DNA of 64,000 bases from a virus (lineage: Duplodnaviria; Heunggongvirae; Uroviricota; Caudoviricetes): the IMG/VR virus record IMGVR_UViG_2778261571_000004; one strand, 5' to 3'. Positions 22,944-64,000 of the stretch are shown here, in pieces. Position 1 is the stretch's first letter. Every line of letters begins with the position of its first letter. The notes under the pieces are model-generated. The model did not search any database. It saw nothing but the letters and a program-made list of their open reading frames with translations, and was not told the DNA's origin. Both the position numbers and the translations under genes were made by a program.

Positions 22944-23537
22944 TTACCACTTGTTATAAACAAAACCAATATCTTTCTTGTGAGGCATATCTGCTGCTGA
23001 AAAAGCTGCGATCTTCGCGAGTCGATCACATATTTCATTTTCACGATGCCCGGCGTGACCTTTAACCCACTTCCAGCGAACATTATGTCGACTTGCGGCC
23101 TCATCCAGACGCTTCCACAGATCAACATTCTTTACCGGTTTTTTGTCAGAAGTCATCCATCCATTGCGTTTCCACCATTTCATCCACTGTGTCATGCCGT
23201 TTTTCAGATACTGGCTATCAGAGTGCAAAATAACGTTGCATGGATATTTCAAACGCTCCAGCCCGATAAGTGCGCCCATCATCTCCATGCGGTTATTGGT
23301 GGTGCTATGAAAACCATCTGAGAACTCGCGTTCCTCACCACGATACTGGAGAACGATACCGTAACCGCCCGGGCCACCCGGATTTTTAAGGCAAGAGCCA
23401 TCACTAAAGATTTTCACGGTTTTGAGCTGGGGATTGAACTCTACGACAGGCGTTGTGGGATTGGTGCGGGGAGAATTTTTGTTTTTGGCTTTTTTGCGAG
23501 TTTTTGCTTGCGATCGGGCTGGTGTCTTCGTCGTCAT
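22944..23537 (-). CDS. rnhA: ribonuclease HI with lysine-rich N-terminal extension
   Basis: DGSC..GPGGYG..TNNRMEL..HSDSQY..VKGHAGH..NE.CD motifs as in bacterial RNase HI; AGGAG SD before Met18 of the track ORF. Confidence 0.8.
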
Positions 23538-24119
23538 ATAAACTCCTGAATCAAGCGCCGCGCCGATTTTTTCCTCGCGCGTGCGCACACGCGTGCGTGT
23601 TAATAATTATTAAAATAAACAAATTACTTCCCAGAACAGGTTTTTATAAACCTGAACTGAACGAACGAAGTGAGTGAAGTTCACCTCGAACGAAGTGAGA
23701 GGTTGTCTTTTCAGGTAATACTCTCCCAGGGAGGTGAGTATAAAATTCCTCACCAACCTGGTCGTTTCATAACCTGAAAAGCTATGGTCTAAGTCTACTG
23801 CCAGCTTAGACTTGGGAAGTTATGGATGACAGCACCCCAGAACCGAGATCTTCCCACACTTTATGAAGGGGAGTACTGGATTCAACCTCTCGAAACACCC
23901 CAGACTCGACAATCATAAAGTGACCCTTGTCTCTGCTCACTTTGGTTCCCCCTTCCCCGACACCTATACGGCACCGGTTCTACGCTGGTAGTGAGCTTTT
24001 TTAAACCTGACGCCAGTGACGCTTACCCCCACCCATCAGGTCGAGCCTCCAGTCTACGACTGGAAACTATCATATCTTAGCACTTACAATTCACTTTATG
24101 AATAGTTTGTACTTATCTA

Positions 24120-24350
24120 TCATTGTGATTGATTATTTTCTCGACCATGTAGTTGAACATTCAAGGCAAACACCTCATTGATCAACTCACCTAAAAGCTG
24201 TTCAACAAGTTCGCGATGCTCGCCAAGATGCAAGCACTTAATTGCCCACTCGTACAAGTTGAAAGCCTGCTCACGATCTTTCATCATTTCACGAGCCTGG
24301 GCCAGAAAATCGCTCTCTACGAGCGCAACGACATTAGTCGGGTATGACAT
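24120..24350 (-). CDS. small hypothetical protein (start at Met9 of track ORF)
   Basis: AAGGAAA SD before Met9. Confidence 0.4.
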   Translation of the reverse strand: MSYPTNVVALVESDFLAQAREMMKDREQAFNLYEWAIKCLHLGEHRELVEQLLGELINEVFALNVQLHGRENNQSQ

Positions 24351-24535
24351 GTTGGTTTCCTTAAAGTGGTTCATAAAATCGATTTTAAAGCGTCTGGGAA
24401 GGGGTTCTAGTGGATTCTGTAGTGATGTTCAGGTCTGGAGTCTCTGATACAAAACAGCCTGCTTCCGTATATTAATAATTAATATGTAGTTATTTATATA
24501 TACAGAAGCAGGCTAATTACAGACGCCAGAACAAA

Positions 24536-25129
24536 CTAAGCAGCCTTCTTTGATGGTCTTTTTTTCCTGATCACATTCGCAGGATCATACCCTCCCAGAC
24601 TTTTCATGACGTCCAAAGGGATCTTGCTTATAGAGTGCCCAGCGTCCTGACAGAATCCTCGAAAAACAACGAGCATACTGCCACCGGGGTTGATGTTTAC
24701 TTCTACCTGACCCAAATTGACGTCAGGCTCGACAAACGCTACGCGGCCACCAGACAGAATAATCGTCTCATTCGCACACTCTGTTGCACGCTCATACCAC
24801 TTTGTATCGAGGGATTGAGGAATTAGCATCACTGTTGTAACTCCGCGAGCCTGCTCACGTATAGCCGCATCAATCCAGGGGGAGATTTTGGAGTAGGGTG
24901 GATTGAGGAAGGCAATTGTACCTGGCTGTCCCCATTCAGATTTCAAAGCATCACGCTCAACGCCTATGAAATTAGGCAGCTTCGCATTGTCCTTGTTGCA
25001 GGCAACGTCAACATCAAATGTCACTCCAAGATAACGTTGAATGGCAGAAAACAGCCAGTCAGGTGTTCTCCAGAGGTCACGAAGAGAGTTGTCGCGCTTT
25101 CGCTGTTTGATTTTTTCGGCTGCAATCAT
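24536..25129 (-). CDS. DNA N6-adenine methyltransferase, phage Dam family (orphan)
   Basis: WRTPDWLF...FDVDVAC...FLNPPYS signature of small phage Dam-type MTases; no cognate nuclease adjacent. Confidence 0.7.
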   Translation of the reverse strand: MIAAEKIKQRKRDNSLRDLWRTPDWLFSAIQRYLGVTFDVDVACNKDNAKLPNFIGVERDALKSEWGQPGTIAFLNPPYSKISPWIDAAIREQARGVTTVMLIPQSLDTKWYERATECANETIILSGGRVAFVEPDVNLGQVEVNINPGGSMLVVFRGFCQDAGHSISKIPLDVMKSLGGYDPANVIRKKRPSKKAA

Positions 25130-25140
25130 CTTCTTTCTCG

Positions 25141-25160
25141 ATAGGTAAGTGATTACCTAT
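25141..25160 (-). promoter_or_regulatory. motif-2 palindrome (ATAGGTAAG-tg-aTTACCTAT) upstream of Dam-family gene, approximate
   Basis: Inverted repeat about 12 nt 5' of the start. Confidence 0.4.
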
Positions 25161-25312
25161 TTTTGCATTTGATTTTATGTCTGGCAATCAAATAAAACGC
25201 GCCAGAAATGCAAACGAGAAGCTCTCTGGCGCGTTTTTGTGGTGCTGGATATGTGATTGGCTTACCCAGCACTATAAAGCTCTCTATGGGCTTTATTTTC
25301 AGTAGGGGGACG

Positions 25313-26282: not shown

Positions 26283-26840
26283 TTACACAATTTCAGAGGG
26301 TAATTTAAAAAATCCGTATTTATTACGTGCCTTAAAGAAGCATTGCATCATTAAGTTTGTGTCATATAAGGCACTATGTGCTTTGGCATGATCGTATATA
26401 AAGCCAAGAGAGAAGGCCAATTCTTCAAGGCGAGGACGTTTACCGTCTTCTGTGGCCCACAATCCCGATAACATAGTATCTATAACGGGAACGTCTGGCA
26501 GTCTTACTCCATACCCTGAAAACTCGTGTCTAATAAATGGTATATCAAACGCTTCGCCGTTATGAGCAACCCACGCACTACATGCCTCCATATAAGCGCC
26601 AATTTCGCTGGCATGATTTGACAACAAAGGTTCAGCTGCCAGCTGTTCTAATGAAATGCCATGAACGGCTTGAGCTTTCGGATCTATGTTTCTGCGAGGG
26701 TTAAAACGCATCTCCAGACTATCAATATGTCTCTGTGTCTCCAGTTCATAGCGGGTAATTGCGATTTCAATAATTTTATGACCAGCAAGGAAATCCAGTC
26801 CCGTAGACTCGATATCGATGCCTGCAACAATCGTTGTCAT
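26283..26840 (-). CDS. DEDDh-family 3'-5' exonuclease (DnaQ/ExoX-like)
   Basis: IDIESTG (Exo I), HNGEAFD (Exo II), HSALYD (Exo III) motifs. Confidence 0.7.
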   Translation of the reverse strand: MTTIVAGIDIESTGLDFLAGHKIIEIAITRYELETQRHIDSLEMRFNPRRNIDPKAQAVHGISLEQLAAEPLLSNHASEIGAYMEACSAWVAHNGEAFDIPFIRHEFSGYGVRLPDVPVIDTMLSGLWATEDGKRPRLEELAFSLGFIYDHAKAHSALYDTNLMMQCFFKARNKYGFFKLPSEIV

Positions 26841-27330: not shown

Positions 27331-27975
27331 CTAATGAACGGTTACTCGGCCACAGAACCGGTTTTCTATCTTTTCTACAGCGTTATCTAGCATTCTCATC
27401 ACTGATCTGGCTCTTGCTTCAACCGTGCGATATCGGTTGGAAACGACGAAGGTTTGCAGATCCCCCCTTTGCGGATGCAGGTGAATTTTTGTCAGTTCCC
27501 CGCACATCAACGCATCAATACGAGCGACATACAGACGGTCTAATGATGCTCGTTGTGATCGCAAGTAATCTCGCTCTGAGAGAGCGACTCCCGGGCGTAA
27601 GCCAGCAATGGCGTTAAAGTTTGAAATAGCAGTTTTGTGGCAAAACTTTTCGATATCGAGGGCTAACTCAATACATCGATCTTCATTGGTATGGCCGACC
27701 AAATCCAACGTGTAGGCCATAACATCAGCAGGTGTGCGATCGATAACAAAGCCTTCAACACCACGCGTAAGTAGCTCTATATGCTTTGCTATTTCCATTT
27801 GAATCTGAAGCCGCTCATATAGAGGCATAGACTCACCTACTCGAACACCGAGTCGGCTCATCAAACTTCCGACACCAGCATCCACGTAAGGGATTCCGTA
27901 ATGTTTGTCGATATATTTAGCCAGGGTTGTTTTCCCACTGCCCTGAGCACCAGTGATCCCAATCCGGTAATCCAT
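27331..27975 (-). CDS. P-loop NTPase, probable nucleotide kinase
   Basis: Walker A GAQGSGKTT near N-terminus; TAATG coupling with upstream DHFR gene. Confidence 0.55.
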   Translation of the reverse strand: MDYRIGITGAQGSGKTTLAKYIDKHYGIPYVDAGVGSLMSRLGVRVGESMPLYERLQIQMEIAKHIELLTRGVEGFVIDRTPADVMAYTLDLVGHTNEDRCIELALDIEKFCHKTAISNFNAIAGLRPGVALSERDYLRSQRASLDRLYVARIDALMCGELTKIHLHPQRGDLQTFVVSNRYRTVEARARSVMRMLDNAVEKIENRFCGRVTVH

Positions 27976-28451
27976 TACGACCTTCTGTATACGATCTGCG
28001 AAAAGCCAGGCTCTTCCTCGCTGGCTCGTTGGGTATAAGCTGTTTCAACAGGCACAAAGCCTAAGTTACGCATCATGCTTGCCGGGAAGAATGCATCGGC
28101 GTTTGGTACATCAACGCCGATGTGGGAGAGCCAAATCTCTTCAACATGCGGCATGAATAGCGAGTAAATTTGTTCCCCGCCAATCACCCACACAGGCTCT
28201 GGTAATCGCAACACATCATCCACACCAGCAGGGTAGAATCCATTTGGTACAAAGCCATGAGAGCGCGTCAAAACGAGGTTATGACGCTCTGGAAGAGGGC
28301 GTTTGAGACTTTCCATCGTTTTACGCCCCATAACGACAGTGGCGTTTTTGGTGAGTCTCTTAAATAGCTTCAGATCGGTAGAACAACGCCAGGGCAGTTC
28401 GTTCGCTATGCCGATCTCATAGTTACGGCCAACAGCAGCGATCATCTTCAT
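27975..28451 (-). CDS. dihydrofolate reductase
   Basis: N-terminal IAAVGRNYEIG..LPW, VVMGRKT, PLPERHNLVL, VIGGEQIY motifs typical of DHFR. Confidence 0.85.
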   Translation of the reverse strand: MKMIAAVGRNYEIGIANELPWRCSTDLKLFKRLTKNATVVMGRKTMESLKRPLPERHNLVLTRSHGFVPNGFYPAGVDDVLRLPEPVWVIGGEQIYSLFMPHVEEIWLSHIGVDVPNADAFFPASMMRNLGFVPVETAYTQRASEEEPGFSQIVYRRS

Positions 28452-28862: not shown

Positions 28863-29966
28863 TCACACCGCCACTGGAACCTTGATCCACGGTAGAGGGT
28901 CATAGCCAAGAATTAAAACCTCGTCCCATTTGAAATCATCCAACTCTGACCATTCATGAGGGAAAATAACGACCGGATCTGAATGCTCTGGAGCCTGTCG
29001 TTTCATTAGCTCACACACACCTTCCATGTGGTTGTTGTACAAATGCACGTCAAAGCCAAAATGCACAAATGCACCGGCCATGTGACCCGTAATCTTCGCG
29101 AGAAAATGAGTGAGAATGCCATAGCCAGCAATATTGAATGGCATACCAACAAAAGTGTCTACGCTACGCTGTACGAGGCAGGAGTTGAGGATGCGTTTGG
29201 GGATTCCAAGTTCATCCAGTTCAGCTTCAGTAACACTGCCGTCCATATCCAGATCGTATAGCATCTTGGTGTAGATAGACTCGTAACCGAGGCGACTGTG
29301 TTGAAGACCAATGTCAGTTGCCATCGTTAAACGGGTTTCAAAATCCAGCTCACGACTCCACAAAGAGAAGACAAAGTGGCAAGGTGGCAGTTTCATATCC
29401 TCAAGCTCGCCTACGTTCCATGCGTTAAGCATGATGCGACGATCGGTAGGGTTCGTGCGCAGTGTATCGACAATACGCTGTAGCTGATCGATTTCACGGG
29501 ACAGCACTACGCGATCTTCACTGATACCCAGGTATCCCTCGACTTTGTACCCGCGTTCACGGAAAGTAGCGATCTTGCTCAGATATTCACTATGGCTCAC
29601 GATGCGGGTATCTTCCCATCGACGCCACTGCTTACCGTAAACCGGCCCCAAATCGCCATTCTCATCGGCCCATGCATCCCAAATCTTAACGCCGTTATCC
29701 TTGAGAAATTGGATGTTGCCCGTGCCTTTCAGATACCACTCAAGTTCGACAAGTAGTGGCTTAAGATTTACCGCCTTTCCAGAAATAAGCGGCACAGTCC
29801 CACCAGTAAGCATGTAGTAAGAGGGAACGTAGCAGGTGCTTAAAGTACCAGTGCCTGTGCGATCATCAGCCTGCACGCCGCTTTTAAGCACCGTCTCAAT
29901 AACTTTTGCATACGATGCGTTTGTTACCTGACCGTTCGTATGCTCTCGATTCAAAAGGAGTGACAC
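28863..29966 (-). CDS. thymidylate synthase (ThyA family) with about 45-aa internal insertion
   Basis: DRTGTGT, catalytic PPCH, QRSVD, PFNIA (Asn = dUMP-type) motifs; insert between PCH and QRS blocks. Confidence 0.8.
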   Translation of the reverse strand: MSLLLNREHTNGQVTNASYAKVIETVLKSGVQADDRTGTGTLSTCYVPSYYMLTGGTVPLISGKAVNLKPLLVELEWYLKGTGNIQFLKDNGVKIWDAWADENGDLGPVYGKQWRRWEDTRIVSHSEYLSKIATFRERGYKVEGYLGISEDRVVLSREIDQLQRIVDTLRTNPTDRRIMLNAWNVGELEDMKLPPCHFVFSLWSRELDFETRLTMATDIGLQHSRLGYESIYTKMLYDLDMDGSVTEAELDELGIPKRILNSCLVQRSVDTFVGMPFNIAGYGILTHFLAKITGHMAGAFVHFGFDVHLYNNHMEGVCELMKRQAPEHSDPVVIFPHEWSELDDFKWDEVLILGYDPLPWIKVPVAV

Positions 29967-30136: not shown

Positions 30137-31006
30137 TTATTTTTTGATCATTCCGTACATTGCTGAGGCTTTAGCTTGCTCAACAAAGGAGGATAAATCG
30201 ACATCACTATAGGTTGGAGACTTCAGAATCTTTCCATCGGAAATTCGAAAACCGATCATCTTATCGGTGCCATCAGCATGGCGGAATCCCAGATCTGAAG
30301 AGTCGTATTTGCAGTTGGCCACAGCCTGGCGACGTTCCTCAACATCAGCAGGCCATAATTTTGTCATGTTAGACCGATGAATTTCGCCAACCAGCTCGAC
30401 GACATTGATACCGAGGAAATCAGCCAGTCGATAAGTCATCATGCACGCCACATAGATTTTGTTCATGACACGGCGCAGTTCCTGAATCAGCTCAGAATCC
30501 TTAACAGTCTTGTTCTCAAGTTTATCTGCCAGCTCTTCGAGCATACATGACGCCTCACGAGCTTCCTGAAATGGCATTGCCATATCATCGAAAACAGTGT
30601 TACCGGGCACAAAAATTGTCTGCATAAAGCGATCAATGCTCTGTTCCTGCGTGTAATAGGTCATGCCGGTAGAAATACCACCTTTGATGGCGACCATCGT
30701 ACCAACACCAACGTATAAAAAGTCGGCCATTGCATCCAGCAGTTGCTCAATATCCCCATTCATTGCGGCTGGAATACCTTCCACTACAGCTTCTTCATGA
30801 ATCAGGCTTGCACGGAGACGAAGCAGCTCTGGTGTCGGCATAACGCGTCTCGGATGCTGGAAGAGTTCATGAAACTGATCGACCATCTTGTAAATACTTT
30901 CAGTAGCTACACCATGACCTTCATGCAACTCATATGGTTCTGGCTTAAATCCAATGAGACGATCGGTGGCAAGTTTCAGGTGGTCAGTCAGTTTGGTAAA
31001 GTTCAT
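30137..31006 (-). CDS. hypothetical protein, possibly MazG-like NTP pyrophosphohydrolase (tentative)
   Basis: Two helical repeats with EE..E/D patterns; weak. Confidence 0.3.
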   Translation of the reverse strand: MNFTKLTDHLKLATDRLIGFKPEPYELHEGHGVATESIYKMVDQFHELFQHPRRVMPTPELLRLRASLIHEEAVVEGIPAAMNGDIEQLLDAMADFLYVGVGTMVAIKGGISTGMTYYTQEQSIDRFMQTIFVPGNTVFDDMAMPFQEAREASCMLEELADKLENKTVKDSELIQELRRVMNKIYVACMMTYRLADFLGINVVELVGEIHRSNMTKLWPADVEERRQAVANCKYDSSDLGFRHADGTDKMIGFRISDGKILKSPTYSDVDLSSFVEQAKASAMYGMIKK

Positions 31007-31083: not shown

Positions 31084-32226
31084 TTACAGGTCTGCAAACT
31101 GGCTTAGAGAAGCCTTATCCACGGTAGAATCGATCTGACCTACCAGATATGTGCTTTGCTCTGCCTCTTGTGGTGCAATTTGCAGTGTGTCGGTTAACAA
31201 CCACTTGTTCATCCAGACCAGCGGATCTGTGGTAACTTCTGGAAATAAAGCCTTCAGGCCAAGACGATTCATAGCCAGATTGGTGCGGTATTTTACATAG
31301 GTCTTCAGAATATCCGCGTTTAAACCAATCATCGAACCGTCTTTGAAGAGATAGTCTGCCCAGTTCATTTCTTGTTCGGCGACTGATTTCATGGTGTCGT
31401 AAATGACGTTTTCTTCATCAGCAGCAATCTCTTTCCACAATAAACCTTCGCGACCGGTACGCATGAAGCGGATCATGCGTTCAGTTCCTTCGCAATGCAG
31501 AGCTTCATCACGGGCAATAAAGCGCATAATTTTGGTGTTACCCTCAAGCAACTTCCGTTCGCCAAAGGCAAACGTACATGCAAAACTTACATAGAAACGG
31601 ATCGCCTCAAGCGCATTAATGGACACCAACGTGCGGAAAAGCTGACGGTGCAAAGGGTATGGCTCCCAGCCATATTCATTTACGTACAGACGTTCAAACT
31701 CTTTCTCACCTAACGACTGGCGCTCGCAGGTCATCCTATAAAGCCTGTCATATTCAGCAGAGATACTGATCGCTCGGTTGATGATTTCTTCATCCGTAAC
31801 AATACCGTCAAAAACAATACTCGGATCGTCCACCATGCCACGAATAATGTGGGTGTAGCTGCGGCTATGGATAGTCTCAGAGAAAGACCATGTTTCAACC
31901 CACGTTTCCAGTTCAGGAATAGAGATAAGCGGCAGCAGCGTTGCATTTGGGCTACGTCCCTGAACTGAATCGAGTAACGTTTGATAACGGAGATTGCTCA
32001 GAAAAATGTGACGTTCGTGGTCCCGCAGCTTCGTGTTGAAGTCGATACGATCGCTCGAAATATCAACTTCTTCCGGCCGCCAGAAGAAAGACAATTGACG
32101 TTCAATCAACTTTTCAAAATCACGGTATTTTTGCTGATCGTAACGTGCCACGTTGACAGATTGTCCGAGGAACATAGGCTCTTTGGTTGCATCATTAGCA
32201 CCCAAACGGAACGTTGAATATGACAT
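31084..32226 (-). CDS. nrdB: ribonucleotide reductase class Ia small subunit
   Basis: Di-iron/tyrosyl-radical family features; adjacent to nrdA. Confidence 0.9.
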
Positions 32227-35300: not shown

Positions 35301-36044
35301 TTACCATGTTCCCCATATAGGGTTTTCCAATAATCTCGCCTCCAACGAATTGGCTACTATTGCCGTTTGCAACGTTGGTTGGGGATAGTTTGCAAAGTCT
35401 GAATACTCATTTTCCTGCGTGACACGTTTATCTGCGGCATGTTTAACACCACTTGCTATGAAATGACGCATGATGCCCAACAGCCTCCGACTGTCTGCAC
35501 TATCGTTTGCTAAAACATGAGGGAGCTGAAGTTCGATTTCTACCATTTCTCCATACTTACCAACAAACTGTAGTTTGTCCGCACTGTACTTTTTATCCCT
35601 CCTTTGGATAAGGAAACCAGTAAAAGCATCACCTGGCGATGCCAAACTATCCACCCGCTTATTGGCAAGTCGAATAAGGTTCGTGAAAGCCATACAGAGA
35701 TGCGCATCCATTGCCCCAAAGAACCCTTCGCTATCAATGTTAAGATCTTCAGTTTCATGGGTTGCGATAAACCCAGGCCCGACGTTGGGGAGATATCCCC
35801 CCTCAACAAAAGGATTAATCAGGATCGGCGCAATACATCCAGGTGGTAGTGATTTCAAACTTTGCATCAATGGTGTCTCGGATATTAGACCAAGCAACGC
35901 GGCGAATTGTACTCCGTCAATATTGTTGCTGCCCCACAGAATACGTGGAGCCGCACCATTGGAAGTATGCCCATTGATCAGTTTTATCGACTGCATCACT
36001 GCAAATACCTGCAAAAACTGCGAGCGGCTTAATTTAAACGACAT
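35301..36044 (-). CDS. hypothetical protein
   Basis: 247-aa ORF overlapping stop of sbcC-like gene. Confidence 0.5.
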   Translation of the reverse strand: MSFKLSRSQFLQVFAVMQSIKLINGHTSNGAAPRILWGSNNIDGVQFAALLGLISETPLMQSLKSLPPGCIAPILINPFVEGGYLPNVGPGFIATHETEDLNIDSEGFFGAMDAHLCMAFTNLIRLANKRVDSLASPGDAFTGFLIQRRDKKYSADKLQFVGKYGEMVEIELQLPHVLANDSADSRRLLGIMRHFIASGVKHAADKRVTQENEYSDFANYPQPTLQTAIVANSLEARLLENPIWGTW

Positions 36045-47311: not shown

Positions 47312-47371
47312 CGGTACATTCCTTCCAAAAAGTAAGGCGTCCGTAGACGCCTTACTGGTCACGTAATGGGA

Positions 47372-50381: not shown

Positions 50382-50597
50382 ATGTCTAATAAAATGACTG
50401 GTTTAGTAAAATGGTTTAACTCTGATAAAGGCTTTGGCTTTATTTCTCCTGCTGATGGCAGTAAAGATGTTTTTGTACATTTTTCGGCAATTCAGAGTAA
50501 TAATTTCCGCACTTTGGAAGAAGGCCAGCAGGTCGAATTCTCTATCGAGAATGGTGCTAAAGGCCCAGCAGCAGCAAATGTCGTTGCTCTAAGCTGA
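50382..50597 (+). CDS. cold-shock protein, CspA family
   Basis: [20 protein letters not shown]...[11 protein letters not shown]1/RNP2 motifs; long 5' leader. Confidence 0.85.
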
Positions 50598-50873
50598 TTC
50601 AACGCTGATGATCCTCATTTCTACAATAACGAAGACGGTGTAAGCCTGAGTGGATAGATTTGTAGGATTGTACAAGTTGAATAAATTAGCATGGTAAGGC
50701 CATGCTAATTAAATCGACACAACGGCCAGTTTATTCCATAAAAGTGAATTGCCCATTGTGGCGAAATGCGGGGTTGCCGCATGAATAGTCAAAGGCAGAA
50801 GCTAACTGCCGGCATGGCAAAACAAAGTGCGTAAGAGGAGTGACTTCCTCAACAAGCGCCATAATTCTTTATA

Positions 50874-54588: not shown

Positions 54589-55824
54589 TTAACCAAATAT
54601 TTTTTGAACAACTTCACGAGCCGCTTGTGCAGAAGCTGAAGGGAGTTTGTTAATGAAAGAACGCTCAATACCTGTCACAAAGTCGCCTCGCATCATTCCA
54701 ATCTTGGCCGACAACAAAAGTTCACGAGGGCCAATTGGCTGACTAATAAGGTGTTCTTCGTATCCATCGCGAACGATACCGGCAAACTTAACCATCTTTT
54801 CAGCGTATTCATCCACGATGCCTGCATTTGTCAACATGTTGATCTCTGCGTCTTTGCTCATGTATTTCACATTCGAAACGATGCCAAAACGCGAAAAGTT
54901 CGCGGCGTTCTGGATGTTTGTACCCTGGTACAAGCCGGTTTCATCACCAGATCCGTTCGTGTTGCCAGTGCCAATGAAAGCAAACCGTTCATGCGGAGTA
55001 ATGCGACGCCATTCTGGAGTTGCCTCTTTGATGACCAACGCTTCACCTTCCAGCACTGGCTGATACACGCCAAGAATCTGTGGAAACGCAAAGTCGTATT
55101 CATCCGCGAGGTAAACCCAGCCATGCTTCATTGCGAGCGCAAGCAAGCCAGGCTCGAAATACGTAGAGCCATCACGCGCCAGAATTTGCCCCGTAACATG
55201 TGCCTCTTCCATTGATGCTGTATGTTGGGCACGGATCAACGGACGATTGAGCAAAGCACATAGTTGTGTAGGCAATGACGATTTGCCTGTTCCTGCATGA
55301 CCCCACAAATAGCCAGGTATGCCAAGTTCAAGCATCATGAAAATGTCTTTGATCAGTTCGAAGTCGCCATATACGTAGCCCTTCTTCACTTCTGGAACGA
55401 ACTCTGGAAACGGCGTATTGACGTTGACGCTAACCATGAGCGGCGTCCCACGTTTTGTTCCGAGTTCTTTCACCGTTACATTTAGCAGTTCGTGAGCTGC
55501 GACCAGATCTGTCTTGTACTCAACTGTGCCTGTGTAGCCTGGGCTACTGGTCACGCCAGATGATTTGGCCATTTCGCTTTTTTGCTCGGCACGTTTAGCT
55601 TGAATTGCATCAAGTGCCTTTTTCGATAGCGTTGGCTCATCTGGAAACTGTGTTGTGTACATTTTCAGTACGGTGTCAGGATCGGCATCTTTTACTGACT
55701 CAGGAATGCCCTCGCAATTACCATTGGCTACATGGGACTTAAAATAGTGAAATGATTTTCCGCACCACTTGCAAACAAGGTAATCAGAAGGATTTTTTTC
55801 ATTTTGCAGTGCAGTAGTCGTCAT
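54589..55824 (-). CDS. AAA+ ATPase, CobS/MoxR-like
   Basis: Walker A GHAGTGKS, Walker B VYLADE; paired with downstream vWA protein. Confidence 0.65.
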   Translation of the reverse strand: MTTTALQNEKNPSDYLVCKWCGKSFHYFKSHVANGNCEGIPESVKDADPDTVLKMYTTQFPDEPTLSKKALDAIQAKRAEQKSEMAKSSGVTSSPGYTGTVEYKTDLVAAHELLNVTVKELGTKRGTPLMVSVNVNTPFPEFVPEVKKGYVYGDFELIKDIFMMLELGIPGYLWGHAGTGKSSLPTQLCALLNRPLIRAQHTASMEEAHVTGQILARDGSTYFEPGLLALAMKHGWVYLADEYDFAFPQILGVYQPVLEGEALVIKEATPEWRRITPHERFAFIGTGNTNGSGDETGLYQGTNIQNAANFSRFGIVSNVKYMSKDAEINMLTNAGIVDEYAEKMVKFAGIVRDGYEEHLISQPIGPRELLLSAKIGMMRGDFVTGIERSFINKLPSASAQAAREVVQKIFG

Positions 55825-55919: not shown

Positions 55920-58028
55920 TCACTTTAAAATGATACGAGATAGTTCAGTAACTACAGATGAACCAAGACTATCAACGCTCGTTACCAGGGCATGATTTGA
56001 GTAAAATCTCTCCGGTGCGTCAGTCATGATGCCAATTGCCATCAAATCAATATCAGTCTGCGTTTCAATTTGCTTCGCAACTGAACGCAAATGAGCGTCA
56101 AAACCTCTCCCAACAGCCCACGGCGCGCCATCACTCAGAACAAGCATGATCTTCCTGTCCTCCATGCGACCGGAAAATAACGATGCAAGGCTGGCTATGC
56201 TTTCACCATCCACGTTATTAAGAAGTGGGAATGTGTACCCTACGCACCCCATACGTGAGCGAACTTCGCGAGAATTTACCTTTTCATTCCAATTTTTGAT
56301 GATAGGTAGCATTAAAGATTCAAAGCGAGAGAACTCATACTTGACAGCCTTAAGTTCTCCTGCCGCCATATGACTACCAAATGTAGTGAAGCCGGTGATA
56401 ATGTTGGGAACATTTATTCGATCAAGGGCATCGGCGATGGTATATGCACTTGCAAGAGCCAGTTTAATCGTTATACCACTCATTGAACCTGATAAATCAA
56501 TCACTTGTTGAACACAGGCGTTAACGGCTTTAGATTCTTCTTTTTTACGAAACACGCGAGCATCATTCATTGCTAATCTGTAGATACTAGAACCATGAAT
56601 GCGCCCCCGACGCTGGCCCGGTATAAACTGAACTCTGTTTCTGCTTGCTATTGCTCGCTCCAGGTCTTTTGCCAGCGTCGACGAAACACCTGACGAAAGA
56701 TGCTTTTCAATATATTTGTCGAAGAGCTGGTTGCCTTCAGAAACGATGCGATAGCGGCTGATTGGACATCCTCCTAAATCAATATCGGAGAATGTTTTAA
56801 TAAGCCGTTTGATATGGGCTTCTGCCTGATCAATCGAGCCGATGAAGTCGTATGAGCGATTGTATGGCCTGTATTCGCTTTTCGAGCTTTCTGTTAACTC
56901 GCTTTTAATCGTTTCGGATAGAGCATCTTCTGTCATGCCTCCGACTTCATCTTCTATGCTATCCAGCTCCTCTAAAGCCTCTTCCAGACTCATTTTTGAC
57001 GGAGTTGGAATATCTGAAGAGCCGTCTTCTGTCGTTTTTCTTTTTTCGTGGTCAGCGGTTAATGATTCTGACGCCGCGTTATCAGAAGCATCAGAATCTG
57101 ATACCTCTTTATCATTTTCTGTATCATCGAATATTGTTTCTGATGATTCAGAATTATCTGAATCATCGCTGTCGTTATTATCATGTTTGTGCTTACTGTG
57201 TGATTCTGATTTGATAGATTTGTGATTATCTAACGCTGAGGGTGTCTCATGATCTTCGTTGTCTTCATTGTTTTCTCCAGAGGCATCCGTCTGGTCAGCG
57301 TCTGAAGGATCGGAAGTTTTTCCCGGAGCTGACTCCTTACCTTTGCTTTCACTTTCAGTGTCTTTGAGGATCTTAGCTATGGTCGCAGCCACCTTTACAC
57401 AATCCTCGGTGCAAGACATGTTACGCACGGCCACATCGATACCATGTTCTTTTAATAATGAAATTGGTTTCTCAATGACAGGCCAATATTCATCCATGAA
57501 ATCTACGAACGGTGCTTGGCCATCCCAGGCTCTTACAACCGGACAGAGAAAGAAGTTTAGAAAAAGCGCGCGCTGATCTTTGCCACAATAAGCAATAGCC
57601 TCTGAAGCCTTTGGTTTAAAGACTTTTTCGATTATAAGGCGCTGAGTTGCCATCAGATTACGTCTTGTTCCGTTAAAGATCTGACCCATTTTTCGCTCGA
57701 TGAACACGTCTTCTAAGGCATTCCATAGCGACCAGGAAGGAACGCGTCCTTTTTCTCTCATTTTGTTGGACACACGAATATCGGTAAACAAAATGTGAGC
57801 AACCTCATGATCGAGAAATCCGCGCACAGCATTCATCAATGCCGGTGTTGCGTTATCCGGGATTGATGGGATGTTTACGAGAATTGGCTCTCCATCATCG
57901 TTATAGCGTACATAAGCGTCGTCCCCTCGTTCTGCAACAGGGATGTTTTTACCTGAAAGGAGAGCGACTACTCGTTTTACACTGTCACGGAAGTCCTGAA
58001 CCTCTTTGATGGAACGTTTTTTAGACAT
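55920..58028 (-). CDS. von Willebrand factor A domain protein, CobT-like, with acidic low-complexity central region
   Basis: MIDAS-like DLSGSMSG near C-terminal third; D/E/S-rich stretch. Confidence 0.6.
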   Translation of the reverse strand: MSKKRSIKEVQDFRDSVKRVVALLSGKNIPVAERGDDAYVRYNDDGEPILVNIPSIPDNATPALMNAVRGFLDHEVAHILFTDIRVSNKMREKGRVPSWSLWNALEDVFIERKMGQIFNGTRRNLMATQRLIIEKVFKPKASEAIAYCGKDQRALFLNFFLCPVVRAWDGQAPFVDFMDEYWPVIEKPISLLKEHGIDVAVRNMSCTEDCVKVAATIAKILKDTESESKGKESAPGKTSDPSDADQTDASGENNEDNEDHETPSALDNHKSIKSESHSKHKHDNNDSDDSDNSESSETIFDDTENDKEVSDSDASDNAASESLTADHEKRKTTEDGSSDIPTPSKMSLEEALEELDSIEDEVGGMTEDALSETIKSELTESSKSEYRPYNRSYDFIGSIDQAEAHIKRLIKTFSDIDLGGCPISRYRIVSEGNQLFDKYIEKHLSSGVSSTLAKDLERAIASRNRVQFIPGQRRGRIHGSSIYRLAMNDARVFRKKEESKAVNACVQQVIDLSGSMSGITIKLALASAYTIADALDRINVPNIITGFTTFGSHMAAGELKAVKYEFSRFESLMLPIIKNWNEKVNSREVRSRMGCVGYTFPLLNNVDGESIASLASLFSGRMEDRKIMLVLSDGAPWAVGRGFDAHLRSVAKQIETQTDIDLMAIGIMTDAPERFYSNHALVTSVDSLGSSVVTELSRIILK

Positions 58029-58590: not shown

Positions 58591-58977
58591 ATGTCTGATA
58601 ACAAGATTGAATTTATAGAAAGTCGCTACGCTGCTTTTATCGCAGGGTTGATTGAATCCTCACCTATGAGCCAGGCCCAGATAGCCAAAACAATTGGGTA
58701 TAAAAACGCCAACAACCTTTCTTTAATTAAAAGCGGCAAAATTCCTTTGCCTATCGATAAGGTTCGTCCGCTGGCGCTGGCACTGGGTATTGAGCCAAGT
58801 CGTCTTATGATGATGGTGCTGGAAGAACGCCAACCTGAACTCGCAGCATTTTTATACAAAGAAGGCACCGCTCCTCTTAACGAGGACGAAAAACAGGTTC
58901 TTGCTGCATATAACGAGCGATTCGGTAAAGAGAAAGGCGCATCACAAAAGGTTGTTGAGGCCATAAAGTCTCTATGA
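58591..58977 (+). CDS. HTH (XRE-family) transcriptional regulator, repressor-like
   Basis: SQAQIAKTIGYKNANNLSLIKSGK helix-turn-helix; plus-strand, convergent with integrase. Confidence 0.6.
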   Translation: MSDNKIEFIESRYAAFIAGLIESSPMSQAQIAKTIGYKNANNLSLIKSGKIPLPIDKVRPLALALGIEPSRLMMMVLEERQPELAAFLYKEGTAPLNEDEKQVLAAYNERFGKEKGASQKVVEAIKSL

Positions 58978-60075
58978 AAAATTTACACGAATAAGCTCTG
59001 TTGATAGACGATCTCCCTTAAATTTGTGGTCAATTTCGTCTAAATCCGGTTGCTCTACGATTGATGCGATGTACGTCGAGAAACTTTCTAAGGCGTCTCG
59101 CATCTCGTCCATATAATCGTGCCGGTCGTAGACCCGATCTATCCCCTCAAGACTGTGGTTCATGATTTTACGTGATACCTCCTGGCTTATGCCTAATGCT
59201 GGGAAGTAACTACGCGCAGTACGGCGCAAATCTCGGGGTGTAAATGGCTCAAGCTCCATCAGTTCTGGTCGTTCCAGAATACGACGTAATGCCTGGGCTA
59301 TTGCCACTTTAGACATAGGAAGGTCTTTCCCGATTTTTTTATTCGAAGGCACGAGCCACTGGCTGTCTTTACCATATTCGAACAACTCTTCAATACAAGT
59401 GCGCATTAATGAGCTTAAAGGCAGAGAATGCTCACGGGCAGATTTGTTCCTCTTGCCTTGATTCCAAACCCCACGCTTAAGATTGAACTCACTTTTTTTA
59501 GCCCGCAGTACTTCGTCAGGTCGTCTTGCGGATACAAGACATAGCCTGGCAGCCCATTTTGTACCAGCACACACATTGAAGTAGTCCCATATATTCCAGA
59601 ACACCCATACCTCTGCGTCGGTCAGCTTCCGCTCGCGAGGTGTGGGCTTTGCGCCACCGGCAACTTTGTTAAGTGACATATCGTTTAACGGTGACACGTC
59701 TATCATCCCCTGGAAGGCGCACCAGCTAAGGAACTGCTTCATCAGAGAGAAAACGCGGCGGCCCATAACAATTTTGCCATCCAGTATTAGTGGGTTGACC
59801 AGTTGGTTCACCATGAACCTATTAATGTCACTTACTTTTACATCGGCAATGTGCGGCAAAACATGTATCAAAATACAATGAACAGCGATCTCTGGCCGAC
59901 GTCTGGTTATCAGCAGAGATAAGCGAGTGAATAACATGAATGCGTCCGAGAATCTCATGTCATTGCTAACCTGCGAGATCATAACGGCCTGCATTTGAGA
60001 TGCTCTTTCGAGATACTCTATCGCCTCTTTTGAGGTGTTCTCCGCAGCGCGTGCTCTGTCAAAGCTATTTTTCAT
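58972..60075 (-). CDS. tyrosine recombinase / integrase
   Basis: C-terminal catalytic blocks (ARRPDE, RDLRRTA, NHS, VYDRHDY). Confidence 0.65.
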   Translation of the reverse strand: MKNSFDRARAAENTSKEAIEYLERASQMQAVMISQVSNDMRFSDAFMLFTRLSLLITRRRPEIAVHCILIHVLPHIADVKVSDINRFMVNQLVNPLILDGKIVMGRRVFSLMKQFLSWCAFQGMIDVSPLNDMSLNKVAGGAKPTPRERKLTDAEVWVFWNIWDYFNVCAGTKWAARLCLVSARRPDEVLRAKKSEFNLKRGVWNQGKRNKSAREHSLPLSSLMRTCIEELFEYGKDSQWLVPSNKKIGKDLPMSKVAIAQALRRILERPELMELEPFTPRDLRRTARSYFPALGISQEVSRKIMNHSLEGIDRVYDRHDYMDEMRDALESFSTYIASIVEQPDLDEIDHKFKGDRLSTELIRVNFS

Positions 60076-60285: not shown

Positions 60286-60531
60286 TCAGAGGGTGCTGAC
60301 GTATGCAGCCAGTTCTGTGTATCCGCCAATCGGCTGGCCATCGATCAGCACTTGGGGGATAGTCTCTACCGGTTTACCAACAATTTCACTTAGTTTTTCC
60401 TTGTCGATACCGGCAGTGGTGATGTCGATGTACTCATAATCACCGTAGCCATGTCCCTTTAGTTGCTTCGCCAGCTCGACCGCACGTTTGCAGTATGAGC
60501 AGTTATCTCGTCCGTAGATAGTGATCGTCAT
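60286..60531 (-). CDS. glutaredoxin (phage NrdC-like)
   Basis: CSYC active site, PQVLIDGQPIGGY glutathione-binding-type motif; ATGA coupling with upstream gene. Confidence 0.75.
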   Translation of the reverse strand: MTITIYGRDNCSYCKRAVELAKQLKGHGYGDYEYIDITTAGIDKEKLSEIVGKPVETIPQVLIDGQPIGGYTELAAYVSTL

Positions 60532-60878
60532 TGCTTTGCCTCATGCCACTTTTGCTTCAGGAGATAGCCTTCCAGGGGCCAGATTTGATCGATAGCATCT
60601 TTTCGAGCGTACTCGCGACCAACATCAAAGTTGAAGATTTCTGGTCTTACGCACGCAGATTTTCCCGTTACGGTATATCCATTTTTGAGAACCATAACGC
60701 AGAACGTTAAGAGTTTTAACGACTCATGACATTTGTCGATATCTGTTTTTGAATTGTAAACGGAGATGAAGTTATCCCCGTGGCTGGCATCATATGCAGT
60801 GAAATAATGTTCACTTTGAATGAGTTGTTCAATGTGTTCAGGGGTGACTTTTAGTGGTGTGTTATCTTTGCTGGTCAT
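60528..60878 (-). CDS. hypothetical protein (116 aa)
   Basis: AGGAAG SD. Confidence 0.5.
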   Translation of the reverse strand: MTSKDNTPLKVTPEHIEQLIQSEHYFTAYDASHGDNFISVYNSKTDIDKCHESLKLLTFCVMVLKNGYTVTGKSACVRPEIFNFDVGREYARKDAIDQIWPLEGYLLKQKWHEAKQ

Positions 60879-60950: not shown

Positions 60951-61100
60951 TGCGCTGAAAAAAAGTGTTGCTAGGATGTTAGCAAGCTATGGTTAAGAAC
61001 GTCTGCCGTAATTGTCTATCACAGCGTTGAGCGGTCTGGTTTATGTTAGCGGAGTCTTAATCTGGGTGATTAAAAGGCCAAACCGCTCAACGCTGTGTCT

Positions 61101-61186
61101 GGCGGAGAGTAATGGAATCGAACCATCATCGCTTGCGCAATGGGACGGTTTTCAAGACCGCTTGAGCACCATGCTCCCTACTCTCC
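61101..61186 (-). tRNA. tRNA-Ser (anticodon UGA), type II with long variable arm, approximate
   Basis: GGTTCGATTCC T-loop, CUUGAAA anticodon loop, 7-bp acceptor pairing, encoded CCA; hand-folded. Confidence 0.55.
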
Positions 61187-61550
61187 GGCCGTTGTGGTGG
61201 CCGGTACTGAATCTCCGGCATACGGTGCAGCCAATTAGGACTACGGACGATCACCGCTCGCGAAAGGGAAGATTTGCGGCCGCATTTCCCTAACATCCAA
61301 GAAAGCTATCGCATCAGTCTGCGAATCCACCACAACGGTAAGATCACTACCTTTCGACCAGTCATTGTGCACATGAACGACGATTAACCGTAATGATCTT
61401 ATCGTTGTGTTGTGAAGCCAGATGCTTATCTTCTGGTTGCTTCAAAGAGCTGCACTTCCTCACAACGGTAAGAGCACTGGTCTGACTCTATCGATTTACG
61501 GGCTTGTGGGTCAGTATCGCCGATTCGCCCAATGCTCTTACCTGTTGTGT

Positions 61551-61626
61551 TGGTGCCGGTTAACGGGATCGAACCGCTGACATCCTGCTTACAAGGCAGA
61601 CGCTCTACCAACTGAGCTAAACCGGC
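61551..61626 (-). tRNA. tRNA-Thr (anticodon UGU), approximate
   Basis: GCCGGTT acceptor, D-arm GCTCAGTTGGTAGAGC, anticodon loop CUUGUAA, GGTTCGATCC, CCA. Confidence 0.65.
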
Positions 61627-61630
61627 AATT

Positions 61631-61717
61631 TGGTGGGGAGTGATGGAGTCGAACCACCCGAGTCGCAATGACAGTAGATTTACAGTCTACCCCGCTGCCC
61701 CTACGGACTAACTCCCC
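61631..61717 (-). tRNA. tRNA-Tyr (anticodon GUA), type II, approximate
   Basis: Anticodon loop CUGUAAA, long variable arm, GGTTCGACTCC, CCA. Confidence 0.6.
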
Positions 61718-61722
61718 TAAAT

Positions 61723-61797
61723 TGGCGATGGTGGGTGGATTCGAACCACCGACCAGTTGGTTAACAGCCAACTGCTCTACCGCTGAGCTACACCATC
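61723..61797 (-). tRNA. tRNA-Asn (anticodon GUU), approximate
   Basis: GATGGTG acceptor, GCTCAGCGGTAGAGC D-arm, anticodon loop CUGUUAA, GGTTCGAATCC, CCA; sequence differs from E. coli tRNA-Asn as I recall it. Confidence 0.7.
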
Positions 61798-62546
61798 AAT
61801 TCAGCACTGCCAGTATTTATTACTCAACAGTGCCAATCGCGACGGTTTAGTTTCTGCCAGGAAACGCACCGCTACTTGCACTTTTCGTTAGTGCCAGACG
61901 CTTTCGACTTCGCTCAATAGTAGAAGGCAAAATCTTTAAGTAGATGATGTTTCTGAGGACAGCACCTACTTTGTAATTTATACAATGTGATGTATGGAAT
62001 CATTTGTTGTGAAAACAGGCACCAATGGCAACAGTGGTTAAACCTACACAACAATCCTGTCTTCACAACGTTGAGGCCACTACTCCGATTGAATGTTTGC
62101 CCAACATGTTACATATCAACGCTCGCCGGTATCTCTGTGAATAGAACCTTAGAATTGATAAAAATGTAATGGCCTCAACGTTGTGTGCTGGCTAACCATA
62201 CCAGCCGGGCTACGTCGCCGCTTTTTAACCCAGTATAAACGACATAATTGAACAAAATGACGTAACAGGATGGGCGGTCAGTGGCTAAGAATCCGGGAGT
62301 CATATGGAGTTGAAAATATACCAACCGCCCATTCTGTTACTTCATCGGAGGGAACATGAATGTTCCCTCCTGCGTTCTGCAATCACACTCGCTCAGTGTG
62401 TCCCATTTCGGTAACGAGGCTGGAAACTGACCTCGCTGGTGTTTGGCTTATTAGGCTACTGCCAGATAGACTTCTTCGTTTGCACTTGTATTTAAGTTCA
62501 AACAGTCGCGTCTCAACGAAAACAAAGTCATCTTATATATAAAAGA

Positions 62547-62570
62547 TAAGTAAGTAAATACTTATCACCA
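62547..62570 (-). promoter_or_regulatory. motif-2 palindrome (GATAAGTA-agtaaa-TACTTATC), approximate
   Basis: Perfect 8-bp arms. Confidence 0.4.
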
Positions 62571-62575
62571 TGTTT

Positions 62576-62866
62576 TTATTCGGTTGTGACTTTTTTGATC
62601 AAGGCCACTCTACGACTAGGTGTTCTTGTGATGGTGGCAGTGAATCGTTTCGCTTGGATAGTAATGGTTTCGTTCTCCTTAAGTTGCCCGTAGCGAGTTT
62701 CCACCAGGGTGCCAAGACGCCACAGACCATCATCGATACGTTTATGACTGGCAAATTTAATCAGCAGCAGTTTTACAACTAACTGACCTACGTAAAAGGC
62801 GAATGCGACTCCGGCCGCTAAGAAATAGGTGGCCAACCACCAGTCCCAAGAAGTTAAATTGCTCAT
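62576..62866 (-). CDS. membrane protein (N-terminal TM helix), hypothetical
   Basis: 96-aa ORF with hydrophobic N-terminus. Confidence 0.45.
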   Translation of the reverse strand: MSNLTSWDWWLATYFLAAGVAFAFYVGQLVVKLLLIKFASHKRIDDGLWRLGTLVETRYGQLKENETITIQAKRFTATITRTPSRRVALIKKVTTE

Positions 62867-63011
62867 TTTCTAACCTTTGTTTCATGAACTACCCGATACA
62901 CACGCTTTCCGATGCACAGTGTTTTGGTTTTAAGTTCCTGCTTAATTAAATCACGACAGATGCCGAAGCCGATAAGGAAGCCACCCATAAAAGCTAATGA
63001 GATGTATGGAA

Positions 63012-63227
63012 TCATTTTAACGCTCCTGATTCTACTAATTGCTGTAGCAATACTTTCCCTTTATCAGTTAACTGGTAGTTGGCCGAACACCACGTTTCAG
63101 AAACGTTTGCAACCAACCCTAACCGCTCTAACTTAGCTCGCGTTTTAGGCTTCCAGTACTCAGGGAACTCCGGCCACTTACTTATTTCATGAAGCGTTTC
63201 TTTCTCCCGTTTACTTAATACGATCAT
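63012..63227 (-). CDS. small hypothetical protein (71 aa)
   Basis: ATGA coupling with ligase stop. Confidence 0.45.
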   Translation of the reverse strand: MIVLSKREKETLHEISKWPEFPEYWKPKTRAKLERLGLVANVSETWCSANYQLTDKGKVLLQQLVESGALK

Positions 63228-64000
63228 TCTTTATCTCCGATTCGATCTTCGGTATCGCGTAAGCAACGCGGCCATTTCAGTCGTGGGTGGCGTAAGCTGC
63301 CATCCGGCGTTTTCTCGTGACAATGAACCTCGACAATACGACCACGGTACTTCTCTTTGTTGTTCCAGATCTCGTCCAGATATTTATGCTTAATGCCGCT
63401 CGCACGAACAATCACACCGTTTTCAAGGCGAATAACAATTTTTCCAAGCGTGTTGGCAAAACCAGAGTCCGGGTCGCCAGGCTCAAAGTCGATAATTTCA
63501 CCATCTTCTGAATCTTCGTCTTTTAACTTCCACCAGCTGCGGGTACGTTTAAACTCGTAAACAGAGTTCGGATCTTTGCCCATCTCCCCTTCTTCGTTAT
63601 CGTCCAGGCGTTTCATGAAGCGTTCGATGAAGTCTTCGTGGCTATGGATGATATAGAACGGATGCAGGTGAATGTCTTGTGCGTAGCCTTCACTGCGATC
63701 GTTTTTAAACAACGCCACCAGCATAGCCAGGCGCTCTTTCAGCTTCATACCTGTCTTTGCATACTCTTTGGATTTAGCCTGTGCCCGCCATTCCGGTAGG
63801 AAGAAGTCGAAAACATGATAAATAGCGCCAATTGCCTGCACGTTCTTTTTGCGCAATGCAGATACGGACTGGTTAAATGAACCGGCTGTTCCTTCACCAT
63901 CGAAGAAGATGTGTTTGTGGCCTGAAAGTTTGCCTAATTCGAGCATTGCTGGCTTTAGGTGATCGAGAGACGTGATTGGATTACCAGTACGAGAAAGGAA
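63224..64000 (-). CDS. ATP-dependent DNA ligase, C-terminal part (5' end lies beyond window)
   Basis: OB-fold/C-terminal ligase motifs (EGEIID, VEVHCHEKTPDGSLRHPR); reading frame continues past position 64000. Confidence 0.6.
   Translation of the reverse strand, partial: FLSRTGNPITSLDHLKPAMLELGKLSGHKHIFFDGEGTAGSFNQSVSALRKKNVQAIGAIYHVFDFFLPEWRAQAKSKEYAKTGMKLKERLAMLVALFKNDRSEGYAQDIHLHPFYIIHSHEDFIERFMKRLDDNEEGEMGKDPNSVYEFKRTRSWWKLKDEDSEDGEIIDFEPGDPDSGFANTLGKIVIRLENGVIVRASGIKHKYLDEIWNNKEKYRGRIVEVHCHEKTPDGSLRHPRLKWPRCLRDTEDRIGDKE

Follow-up and report, generated by a model that had tools for sequence, protein, structure and literature searches.

What kind of element brings its own DNA polymerase, ribonucleotide reductase (RNR) and thymidylate synthase together with a plasmid-type replicon? 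This question is raised by the viral record IMGVR_UViG_2778261571_000004 (Caudoviricetes), a stretch of 64,000 nucleotides (nt) that we analysed over its full length and call the window, and above all by its positions 22944-64000. We conclude, with a probability of roughly 0.93, that the window is a 64-kb piece of a circular phage-plasmid of about 110 kb belonging to the SSU5 supergroup, and that 22944-64000 is the conserved replication, recombination and nucleotide-metabolism module of this element. With equal confidence, we assign the element to the E. coli lineage that comprises pLF82 (phage Cyrano), pECOH89 and E. coli D4 plasmid A.

Relationship to the SSU5-type phage-plasmids

A blastn comparison of 22944-64000 with NZ_CP010144 (E. 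coli D4 plasmid A) gave 98.7% identity at 100% coverage. This plasmid, which is circular, 114,159 bp long and non-mobilizable, was also the best plasmid match in a megablast search with window 40000-64000 (98.7% over 100%), a search in which 154 plasmid records covered at least 80% of the query. Window 1-25000 matches D4 plasmid A as well, and local alignment demonstrated that the entire window is collinear with 31341-93660 of NZ_CP010144, the breaks being two small insertions and a variable hsdS. Moreover, backbone homologues of SSU5 and pHCM2 start at window 177, left of 22944. The initial annotation, which placed the element at 22944-64000, therefore drew it too short.

Among phage records, megablast with window 40000-64000 returned Escherichia phage Cyrano (identical to pLF82 of E. 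coli LF82, OV696614) at 98.5% identity over 90% of the query, in seven pieces, three further E. coli phage-plasmid records at 96-98% identity, and SSU5 at 79.9% identity over 54%. Across the window, Cyrano, D4 plasmid A and pECOH89 are 97-99% identical to it in nt sequence and have the same gene order, cargo site and tRNA cluster; D4 plasmid A differs in lacking window 2398-3219 and 11936-12735 and in a divergent hsdS at 14696-15750. Cyrano has a copy number of 5.5 per cell, and ciprofloxacin induces it 39-fold; quantitative PCR of filtered supernatants, corrected for host-DNA contamination, showed release of DNase-protected particles about 32-fold above background, and transmission electron microscopy revealed a siphovirus of SSU5-like dimensions (PMC9928086).

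The SSU5/pHCM2-like phage-plasmid signature proposed in the initial annotation was borne out. In the blastn comparison that it had suggested, SSU5 covers 76% and pHCM2 81% of 22944-64000 at about 77% nt identity, and tblastn found collinear homologues with 47-95% amino acid (aa) identity for 34 (SSU5) and 37 (pHCM2) of the 39 open reading frames (ORFs) in this region. Once reversed, both gene maps are collinear with the window. The ORFs shared with pHCM2 (NC_003385, from Salmonella Typhi) include a block of helix-turn-helix (HTH), integrase, glutaredoxin (Grx) and Gp49 genes between cobT and ligase, whereas its RepA is 48% identical and it lacks the RecA intein (its recombinase has 358 aa), csp, metG-apbC, humD-hot and the hsd cargo. 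SSU5 (NC_018843), the type phage of the supergroup, shares the 367-aa thymidylate synthase ThyA, the DfrA51 dihydrofolate reductase (DHFR), the gp32-type single-stranded DNA-binding protein (SSB), the CobT-CobS-dnaE order and sbcD before sbcC, but it lacks the integrase/HTH/Grx/Gp49 block, csp and the RecA intein, and it has one tRNA (Asn) versus four in the window. The genes dnaE, rnhA, dam, dfrA and nrdAB were already reported as common to pECOH89, pLF82 and pHCM2 (PMC3999498).

The SSU5 supergroup, defined by Pfeifer et al. 2021 (PMC7969092), is marked by a shared gene repertoire (a persistent genome with recombination and replication genes), a plasmid replication module and extrachromosomal maintenance. 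Further marks are a siphovirus virion and packaging module homologous to that of SSU5 (TerL, portal, major capsid protein, tape measure, tail), carried by SSU5, pHCM2 and NZ_CP010144, and inducible virion production, for which published evidence comes only from the close relative Cyrano. The repertoire is present here as the collinear homologues in SSU5 and pHCM2, and the replication module as a Rep3_N initiator flanked by iterons; most members type as IncFIB. Extrachromosomal maintenance is indicated by proxy: the dnaE of the window is carried by 244 of 5,426 complete genomes of E. coli (about 4.5%), at 251 places, all of them on plasmids and none chromosomal.

Replicon, replication module and accessory genes

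Gene identities were obtained from Pfam scans of the window ORFs, tRNAs from ARAGORN and RNA families from Rfam. The plasmid-type replicon recognized by the initial annotation is a Rep3 initiator gene flanked by 16 iterons:

40251-40464, plus strand: plasmid origin with a P1 oriR-like layout (DnaA-box-like site, GATC cluster, four to five iterons)
40366-41580, plus strand: Rep3/RepB-family replication initiator (Pfam Rep3_N, E=5e-9)
41580-42111, plus strand: putative incA-like copy-control array of twelve downstream iterons (iteron pattern matches)

The iteron pattern RTATGCTRYSARCGG has 16 matches in the window versus 0.2 expected. Upstream of rep lie a DnaA-box-like site, ATATCCACA, at 40251-40259 and six GATC sites within 60 bp (40264-40323), and four iterons in register plus one degenerate copy (40364-40464) stand before rep. 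The P1 oriR-repA-incA region is laid out as a DnaA box, a GATC cluster, iterons, rep and downstream iterons, which the present origin resembles. The first 100 nt of the listed rep ORF are iterons, and homology to the RepA of SSU5 and pHCM2 starts at residue 70; therefore, the true start of Rep is probably the ATG at 40487.

Within 22944-64000, only rep, csp and the HTH gene are on the plus strand; every other ORF is on the minus strand. The Pol III alpha, RNR, ThyA, DHFR, Grx, SbcCD, SSB, flap endonuclease (FEN), RNase HI and CobS/CobT named by the initial annotation are present as intact ORFs with strong Pfam support; so is the ligase as far as its C-terminal 258 aa, beyond which the gene runs off the end of the window. 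Besides the replicon, the region contains:

22944-23588, minus strand: RNase HI, 214 aa (Pfam RNase_H, E=1.1e-44; 82-83% aa identity to SSU5/pHCM2)
24536-25129, minus strand: Dam-type N6-adenine DNA methyltransferase (Pfam Dam, E=2.5e-38; 86% aa identity to SSU5)
26283-26840, minus strand: DnaQ/RNase T-family 3'-5' exonuclease, 185 aa, exonuclease domain only (Pfam RNase_T, E=2.5e-21)
27331-27975, minus strand: P-loop kinase-like protein (Pfam AAA_28, E=2e-9; weak nucleotide-kinase family matches)
27975-28451, minus strand: dihydrofolate reductase, DfrA51-like (Pfam DHFR_1, E=1.6e-34)
28863-29966, minus strand: thymidylate synthase, 367 aa (Pfam Thymidylat_synt, E=2.3e-78; SSU5 homologue of the same length, 87% aa identity)
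30137-31006, minus strand: MazG/PRA-PH-like nucleotide pyrophosphohydrolase (Pfam PRA-PH, E=1.3e-8; 81% aa identity to SSU5_080)
31084-32226, minus strand: NrdB of a class Ia RNR (Pfam Ribonuc_red_sm, E=3e-46; NrdAB 87-89% aa identical to SSU5)
32333-34648, minus strand: NrdA of the same class Ia type (Pfam Ribonuc_red_lgC, E=4e-131, with ATP-cone; NrdAB identity as above)
36034-37950, minus strand: SbcC-like ATPase (Pfam AAA_23, SMC_N, SbcC_Walker_B)
38180-39265, minus strand: SbcD-like phosphoesterase, upstream of sbcC (Pfam Metallophos; pHCM2 homologue annotated as SbcCD subunit D)
43759-46098, minus strand: RecA-like recombinase, 779 aa including an intein (Pfam RecA, Intein_splicing, LAGLIDADG_3)
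46367-47362, minus strand: 5'-3' exonuclease / FEN (Pfam 5_3_exonuc_N, 5_3_exonuc; 92% aa identity to SSU5)
47372-48400, minus strand: T4 gp32-type SSB, distinct from the bacterial OB-fold type (Pfam gp32, E=1.7e-66)
50204-50622, plus strand: cold-shock protein (Csp) gene with a cspA-type thermoregulator leader (Rfam RF01766, 187.6 bits; Pfam CSD, E=4e-33)
50901-54407, minus strand: C-family DNA polymerase, Pol III alpha, 1168 aa (PHP, polymerase core, fingers, helix-hairpin-helix (HhH) and C-terminal domain with the fold of uracil-DNA glycosylase (UDG))
54589-55824, minus strand: CobS-like MoxR AAA+ ATPase (Pfam AAA_5; CobS/CobT pair collinear with SSU5_049/050)
55920-58028, minus strand: CobT-like VWA protein (Pfam CobT and CobT_C, E=3e-82)
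58591-58977, plus strand: HTH regulator (Pfam HTH_19, weak; 66% aa identity to pHCM2; absent in SSU5)
58972-60075, minus strand: tyrosine recombinase (Pfam Phage_integrase; 84% aa identity to pHCM2; absent in SSU5)
60286-60531, minus strand: glutaredoxin (Pfam Glutaredoxin, E=9e-11)
60528-60878, minus strand: Gp49-family protein (Pfam Phage_gp49_66, E=2e-29)
61100-61797, minus strand: tRNA cluster Ser(UGA), Thr(UGU), Tyr(GUA), Asn(GUU) (ARAGORN)
63224-64000, minus strand, frame open to the window edge: ATP-dependent DNA ligase, C-terminal 258 aa (Pfam DNA_ligase_A_M; 92% aa identity to SSU5)

The sbcD gene thus precedes sbcC, and ThyA and NrdB are unbroken ORFs, Rfam detecting no intron anywhere in the window; both points agree with the initial annotation. 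No clamp or clamp-loader domain was found among the window ORFs scanned with Pfam. The P-loop kinase-like protein is a possible deoxynucleoside monophosphate kinase, judging from its family matches. The CobS/CobT pair adjoins dnaE throughout the family (window, SSU5 and pHCM2), which suggests that it plays a chaperone-like role in the replication or assembly machinery and not in cobalamin synthesis.

Left of 22944, accessory cargo at 7877-19128 interrupts the backbone:

7877-11168: metG-apbC cargo (Pfam; annotation of the near-identical plasmid)
11206-11957: P1-like humD-hot pair (PDB match to P1 Hot, E=2.7e-33)
13084-19128: type I restriction-modification (R-M) genes hsdMSR (Pfam; annotation of the near-identical plasmid)

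None of these three modules has a homologue in SSU5 or pHCM2. The second metG (methionyl-tRNA synthetase) and apbC/mrp share about 90% DNA identity with the chromosomal locus of E. coli, which suggests capture from a related species, or capture long ago. The plasmid copy was found in 217 of the 5,426 complete E. coli genomes, and its stretch has the highest GC content in the window (0.515 versus about 0.45). Hot, a homologue of Pol III theta, is about 95% aa identical to P1 Hot, but in the window a CAG-to-TAG change relative to D4 plasmid A places an amber codon after residue 61 of 83. The hsdMSR genes occupy the site of a 561-aa DNA methyltransferase (DUF4942) in SSU5 and pHCM2, of which a 158-aa remnant (SSU5_095) persists at 19187-19663, and hsdS is the segment most divergent from D4 plasmid A. 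Of the two segments absent from that plasmid, window 2398-3219 holds a 232-aa ORF (2419-3117) with no Pfam match and no SSU5 or pHCM2 homologue, and window 11936-12735 (about 800 bp) holds no ORF longer than 74 aa.

Two accessory features lie within the module itself. The csp gene, which SSU5 and pHCM2 lack, has a full-length cspA thermoregulator leader and is 75-77% identical to the csp morons of lambdoid phages Tritos and 2H10. The Rfam matches in the window are limited to tRNAs and this cspA leader; three of the four tRNAs are confirmed in this way, and tRNA-Ser, an ARAGORN call, has no Rfam match at the gathering score. The tRNA cluster shares about 89% nt identity with the corresponding region of P7 and D6, two P1-like phages, suggesting that a tRNA module was exchanged between two groups of phage-plasmids.

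Competing explanations and proposed workings

The alternative that survives best is a defective or domesticated SSU5-like plasmid, which has kept the module but forms no infectious virions and serves as a low-copy carrier of cargo (metG-apbC, type I R-M, Csp). We regard it as unlikely. It would account for the lack of virion and packaging genes among the window ORFs examined, a lack that the initial annotation had also remarked on, for the cargo at 7877-19128 that has replaced backbone genes and left the methyltransferase remnant, and for the amber stop in hot; a Klebsiella SSU5-like plasmid was likewise reported to be a plasmid with conserved phage genes (PMC8969562). However, no module ORF with an SSU5 or pHCM2 homologue looks truncated, as most of them align from end to end. 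Moreover, D4 plasmid A, at 98.7% identity, has a complete-looking virion block, and Cyrano, at 98.5% identity over window 40000-64000, makes particles. The capsid and terminase genes that the initial annotation proposed to look for in the rest of the replicon are thus present in the closest relatives: the annotation of NZ_CP010144 lists tail genes, tape measure, major capsid, portal and TerL at 2356-24012, outside the part that matches the window, where ParB-like genes and a DEAD-box helicase are annotated as well. The block from tail to terminase as a whole spans 2356-24644.

Several points weigh against our assignment to an SSU5-supergroup phage-plasmid. The closest plasmid is typed in PLSDB as rep_cluster_488 and not as IncFIB, and Rep is only 48% identical to the RepA of SSU5 and pHCM2; two RepA types about 48% identical have already been reported within the lineage (PMC3999498). 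The completeness of the replicon as a phage is read from its relatives, because the window does not reach the virion, packaging, lysis and partition genes. Some SSU5-like plasmids have been presented as maintained plasmids with conserved phage genes and not as proven active phages (PMC8969562). In addition, we found no demonstration in the literature, for any member, of a division of labour between plasmid and lytic replication.

A fragment of a large virulent T4- or T5-like phage is almost certainly not the source of this DNA. T4-like phages typically carry NrdAB, Td, Frd, Grx, a gp32-type SSB and gp46/47-like nucleases, and the window has all of these. However, T4 replicates with a B-family polymerase, gp43, that is served by a clamp and clamp loader of its own, its gp46 precedes gp47, and its td and nrdB contain group I introns, whereas here the polymerase is of the C family, the scanned ORFs include no clamp or clamp loader, sbcD precedes sbcC and Rfam finds no intron. 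Membership in the T4-like phages was rejected on these grounds, and the initial annotation was right to call the gene order not T4-like. Furthermore, the window contains an iteron/Rep3 plasmid replicon, and hundreds of resident plasmids match its DNA at 97-99% identity. Among the phage records, those with matches to large parts of window 40000-64000 are SSU5-like elements; the remaining listed phages (P1-like, lambdoid) match over 1-2% of it, at the tRNA cluster and csp.

P1, P7 and D6 have in common with the element the phage-plasmid lifestyle, the humD-hot pair and the tRNA cluster, but no backbone: matches to P1-like phages account for only about 2% of window 40000-64000. P1, a myovirus, encodes neither its own polymerase nor an RNR. 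Membership in the P1 group was therefore rejected, the tRNA cluster (about 2% of the query, P7/D6) and the humD-hot accessory module being all that is common to both. The tyrosine recombinase at 58972-60075, a Phage_integrase-family gene with an adjacent HTH regulator, might suggest an integrated prophage or a genomic island that relies on it. This reading is dismissed as wholly improbable because dnaE has no chromosomal occurrence in complete E. coli genomes (251 of 251 on plasmids), and because pHCM2, a plasmid, has the recombinase at the same position. In analogy to P1 Cre, the enzyme more likely resolves multimers.

For the SSU5-type phage-plasmid, we infer a split of roles between a plasmid mode and a lytic mode. 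During lysogeny, Rep and the iteron origin would keep the element as a low-copy plasmid, with the downstream iteron array acting in copy control, as incA does in P1, and the partition genes placed outside the window. Upon SOS induction, phage-type replication would be driven by the element's own C-family polymerase, gp32-type SSB, FEN, RNase H and ligase; it would also use a DnaB-like helicase and a primase, both annotated in SSU5, with counterparts expected outside the window. Deoxynucleoside triphosphates would be supplied in larger and balanced amounts by NrdAB with Grx, by ThyA and DHFR, and by the MazG-like and kinase-like enzymes. The RecA-like protein, SbcCD and FEN may process and recombine replication intermediates into packageable concatemers.

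Polymerase, RecA intein and folate enzymes

The Pol III alpha of the window resembles bacterial alpha only up to the HhH domain. Its last 150 residues or so (about 1020-1168, DNA 50904-51350) match family-4 UDGs (profile E=3.5e-8) and have the UDG alpha/beta fold. In family-4 UDGs, motif A is GE(A/C)PG, motif B is HPS, and a 4Fe-4S cluster is bound by four Cys residues. In an alignment of 14 polymerase homologues, by contrast, the motif A position reads LDNAN(G), the motif B position reads FNP except for FTP in one homologue, and no conserved Cys set for an Fe-S cluster was found. A canonical family-4 UDG identity is thereby ruled out, and canonical uracil excision is doubtful. Upstream of this domain, the pentapeptide QAELM (residues 966-970) is invariant among the homologues. 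It resembles the E. coli clamp-binding motif QADMF (PMC3201878) and lies near the position expected for it, which makes it a candidate clamp-binding motif, although the regular expression Q..[LMIV][FLW] for such motifs had no match in the C-terminal part of the polymerase.

We tentatively propose, as a possibility that we rate below even odds, that the SSU5-type replicase has a C-family architecture, of which we found no description, in which the OB and tau-binding C-terminal domains have been replaced by a non-canonical UDG-fold domain while QAELM was kept. Kazlauskas and Venclovas reported that viral C-family polymerases have C-termini unlike that of E. coli alpha, and they considered it possible that the UDG domains of A-family polymerases serve as processivity factors (PMC3201878), and a 2025 preprint found the UDG on phiLo-type PolA to be active. 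Neither mentions a C-family polymerase with a UDG domain, and a literature search for phage Pol III alpha fused to UDG yielded nothing relevant. Compared with the UDG-polymerase pairings of SPO1, T5 and phiLo (A-family) and of vaccinia D4 with E9 (B-family), the polymerase of the window differs in its C-family core, in the C-terminal placement of the domain, and in having LDNAN for GE(A/C)PG, FNP for HPS and no conserved Fe-S Cys positions.

In many relatives, dnaE is split into ORFs of 787 and 389 aa by a free-standing NUMOD4-HNH endonuclease gene, at a point that corresponds to about window 52050 (seen at L008 2918-7170 and L009 3635-7176, the latter with the NUMOD4-HNH gene fused to the downstream part of dnaE). 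This insertion occurs in about 243 PLSDB plasmids, mostly from Klebsiella, while the window allele is unsplit. Such a split in hundreds of relatives implies that the polymerase would work there as a two-piece enzyme. A complete Pol III core of the element's own (alpha, epsilon and theta) is not supported: the DnaQ-like exonuclease is only distantly epsilon-like (best PDB match E. coli Pol III epsilon, E=9e-11) and lacks the C-terminal alpha-binding tail of E. coli epsilon, and the theta homologue is of the P1 Hot type, sits in the accessory module and is shortened by the amber codon.

The RecA-like ORF reaches 779 aa because a 422-aa LAGLIDADG intein (DNA 44641-45906) lies between K and T of the Walker A loop, GPPSAGK|T. 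The initial annotation did not mention this intein. The precursor junctions read GPPSAGK|CVTADT...IISHN|TFLATAA, with Cys1, a C-terminal His-Asn and a +1 Thr, and were set by comparison with the intein-less 358-aa SSU5 protein, which reads straight through as GPPSAGKTFLATAA. The terminal residues, the splicing blocks flanking LAGLIDADG, the in-frame position and the insertion in a conserved motif are those of a class 1 intein, and splicing is predicted from these features. In PLSDB, the intein DNA was found in 248 plasmids and the RecA C-extein in 664; most Cyrano/D4-type E. coli plasmids also carry the intein, which is 97% identical in Klebsiella, Enterobacter and Citrobacter elements. Between one Klebsiella plasmid and the window, the intein is 97.0% identical but the exteins are 80-82% and the neighbouring genes 71-79% identical, which indicates recent horizontal homing between diverged lineages. 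Some copies already bear the PGAP name 'intein-containing recombinase RecA', and we found no paper linking inteins to SSU5.

The DHFR at 27975-28451 is identical to SSU5 DHFR at 143 of 158 aa (90.5%). The SSU5 enzyme is DfrA51, which confers trimethoprim resistance when expressed in E. coli and in which the four residues A6, I13, D26 and S48 were reported as important (PMC12217456); the window DHFR keeps all four. ThyA, with 367 aa, is about 100 aa longer than usual because it has two insertions (about 38 and 58 aa) relative to bacterial ThyA. They lie at about residues 119-156 and 204-261, split the PDB alignment into three blocks and are conserved in SSU5 and pHCM2. An intein or intron as the cause of the extra length was ruled out.

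Taken together, the element itself is already known and ordinary, and there is little new in finding its module at 22944-64000: SSU5/pHCM2-type phage-plasmids with their own dnaE, nrdAB, thyA and dfr have been on record since pHCM2, and catalogues list them in hundreds of genomes. A literature search on pHCM2 together with RNR and thymidylate synthase returned nothing relevant, and a 2026 preprint on phage-plasmid heteroresistance deals with the unrelated p-p47 family. Of practical value is that such elements serve as carriers that disseminate cargo, in this case an extra metG-apbC, a type I R-M system and a cold-shock gene, and that the window DHFR is a close relative of DfrA51 with its key residues kept. 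The by-products of the analysis (RecA intein, UDG-fold polymerase terminus and split dnaE) are modestly novel and may interest researchers of replisome evolution and homing elements. Selfish elements are frequent in this gene family, with an intein apparently spreading through the RecA P-loop across host genera and, in relatives, an HNH gene in dnaE. If the proposed replicase architecture is correct, viral polymerases of the A, B and C families would independently have come to carry a UDG module on the replicase, as a device for processivity or template scanning.

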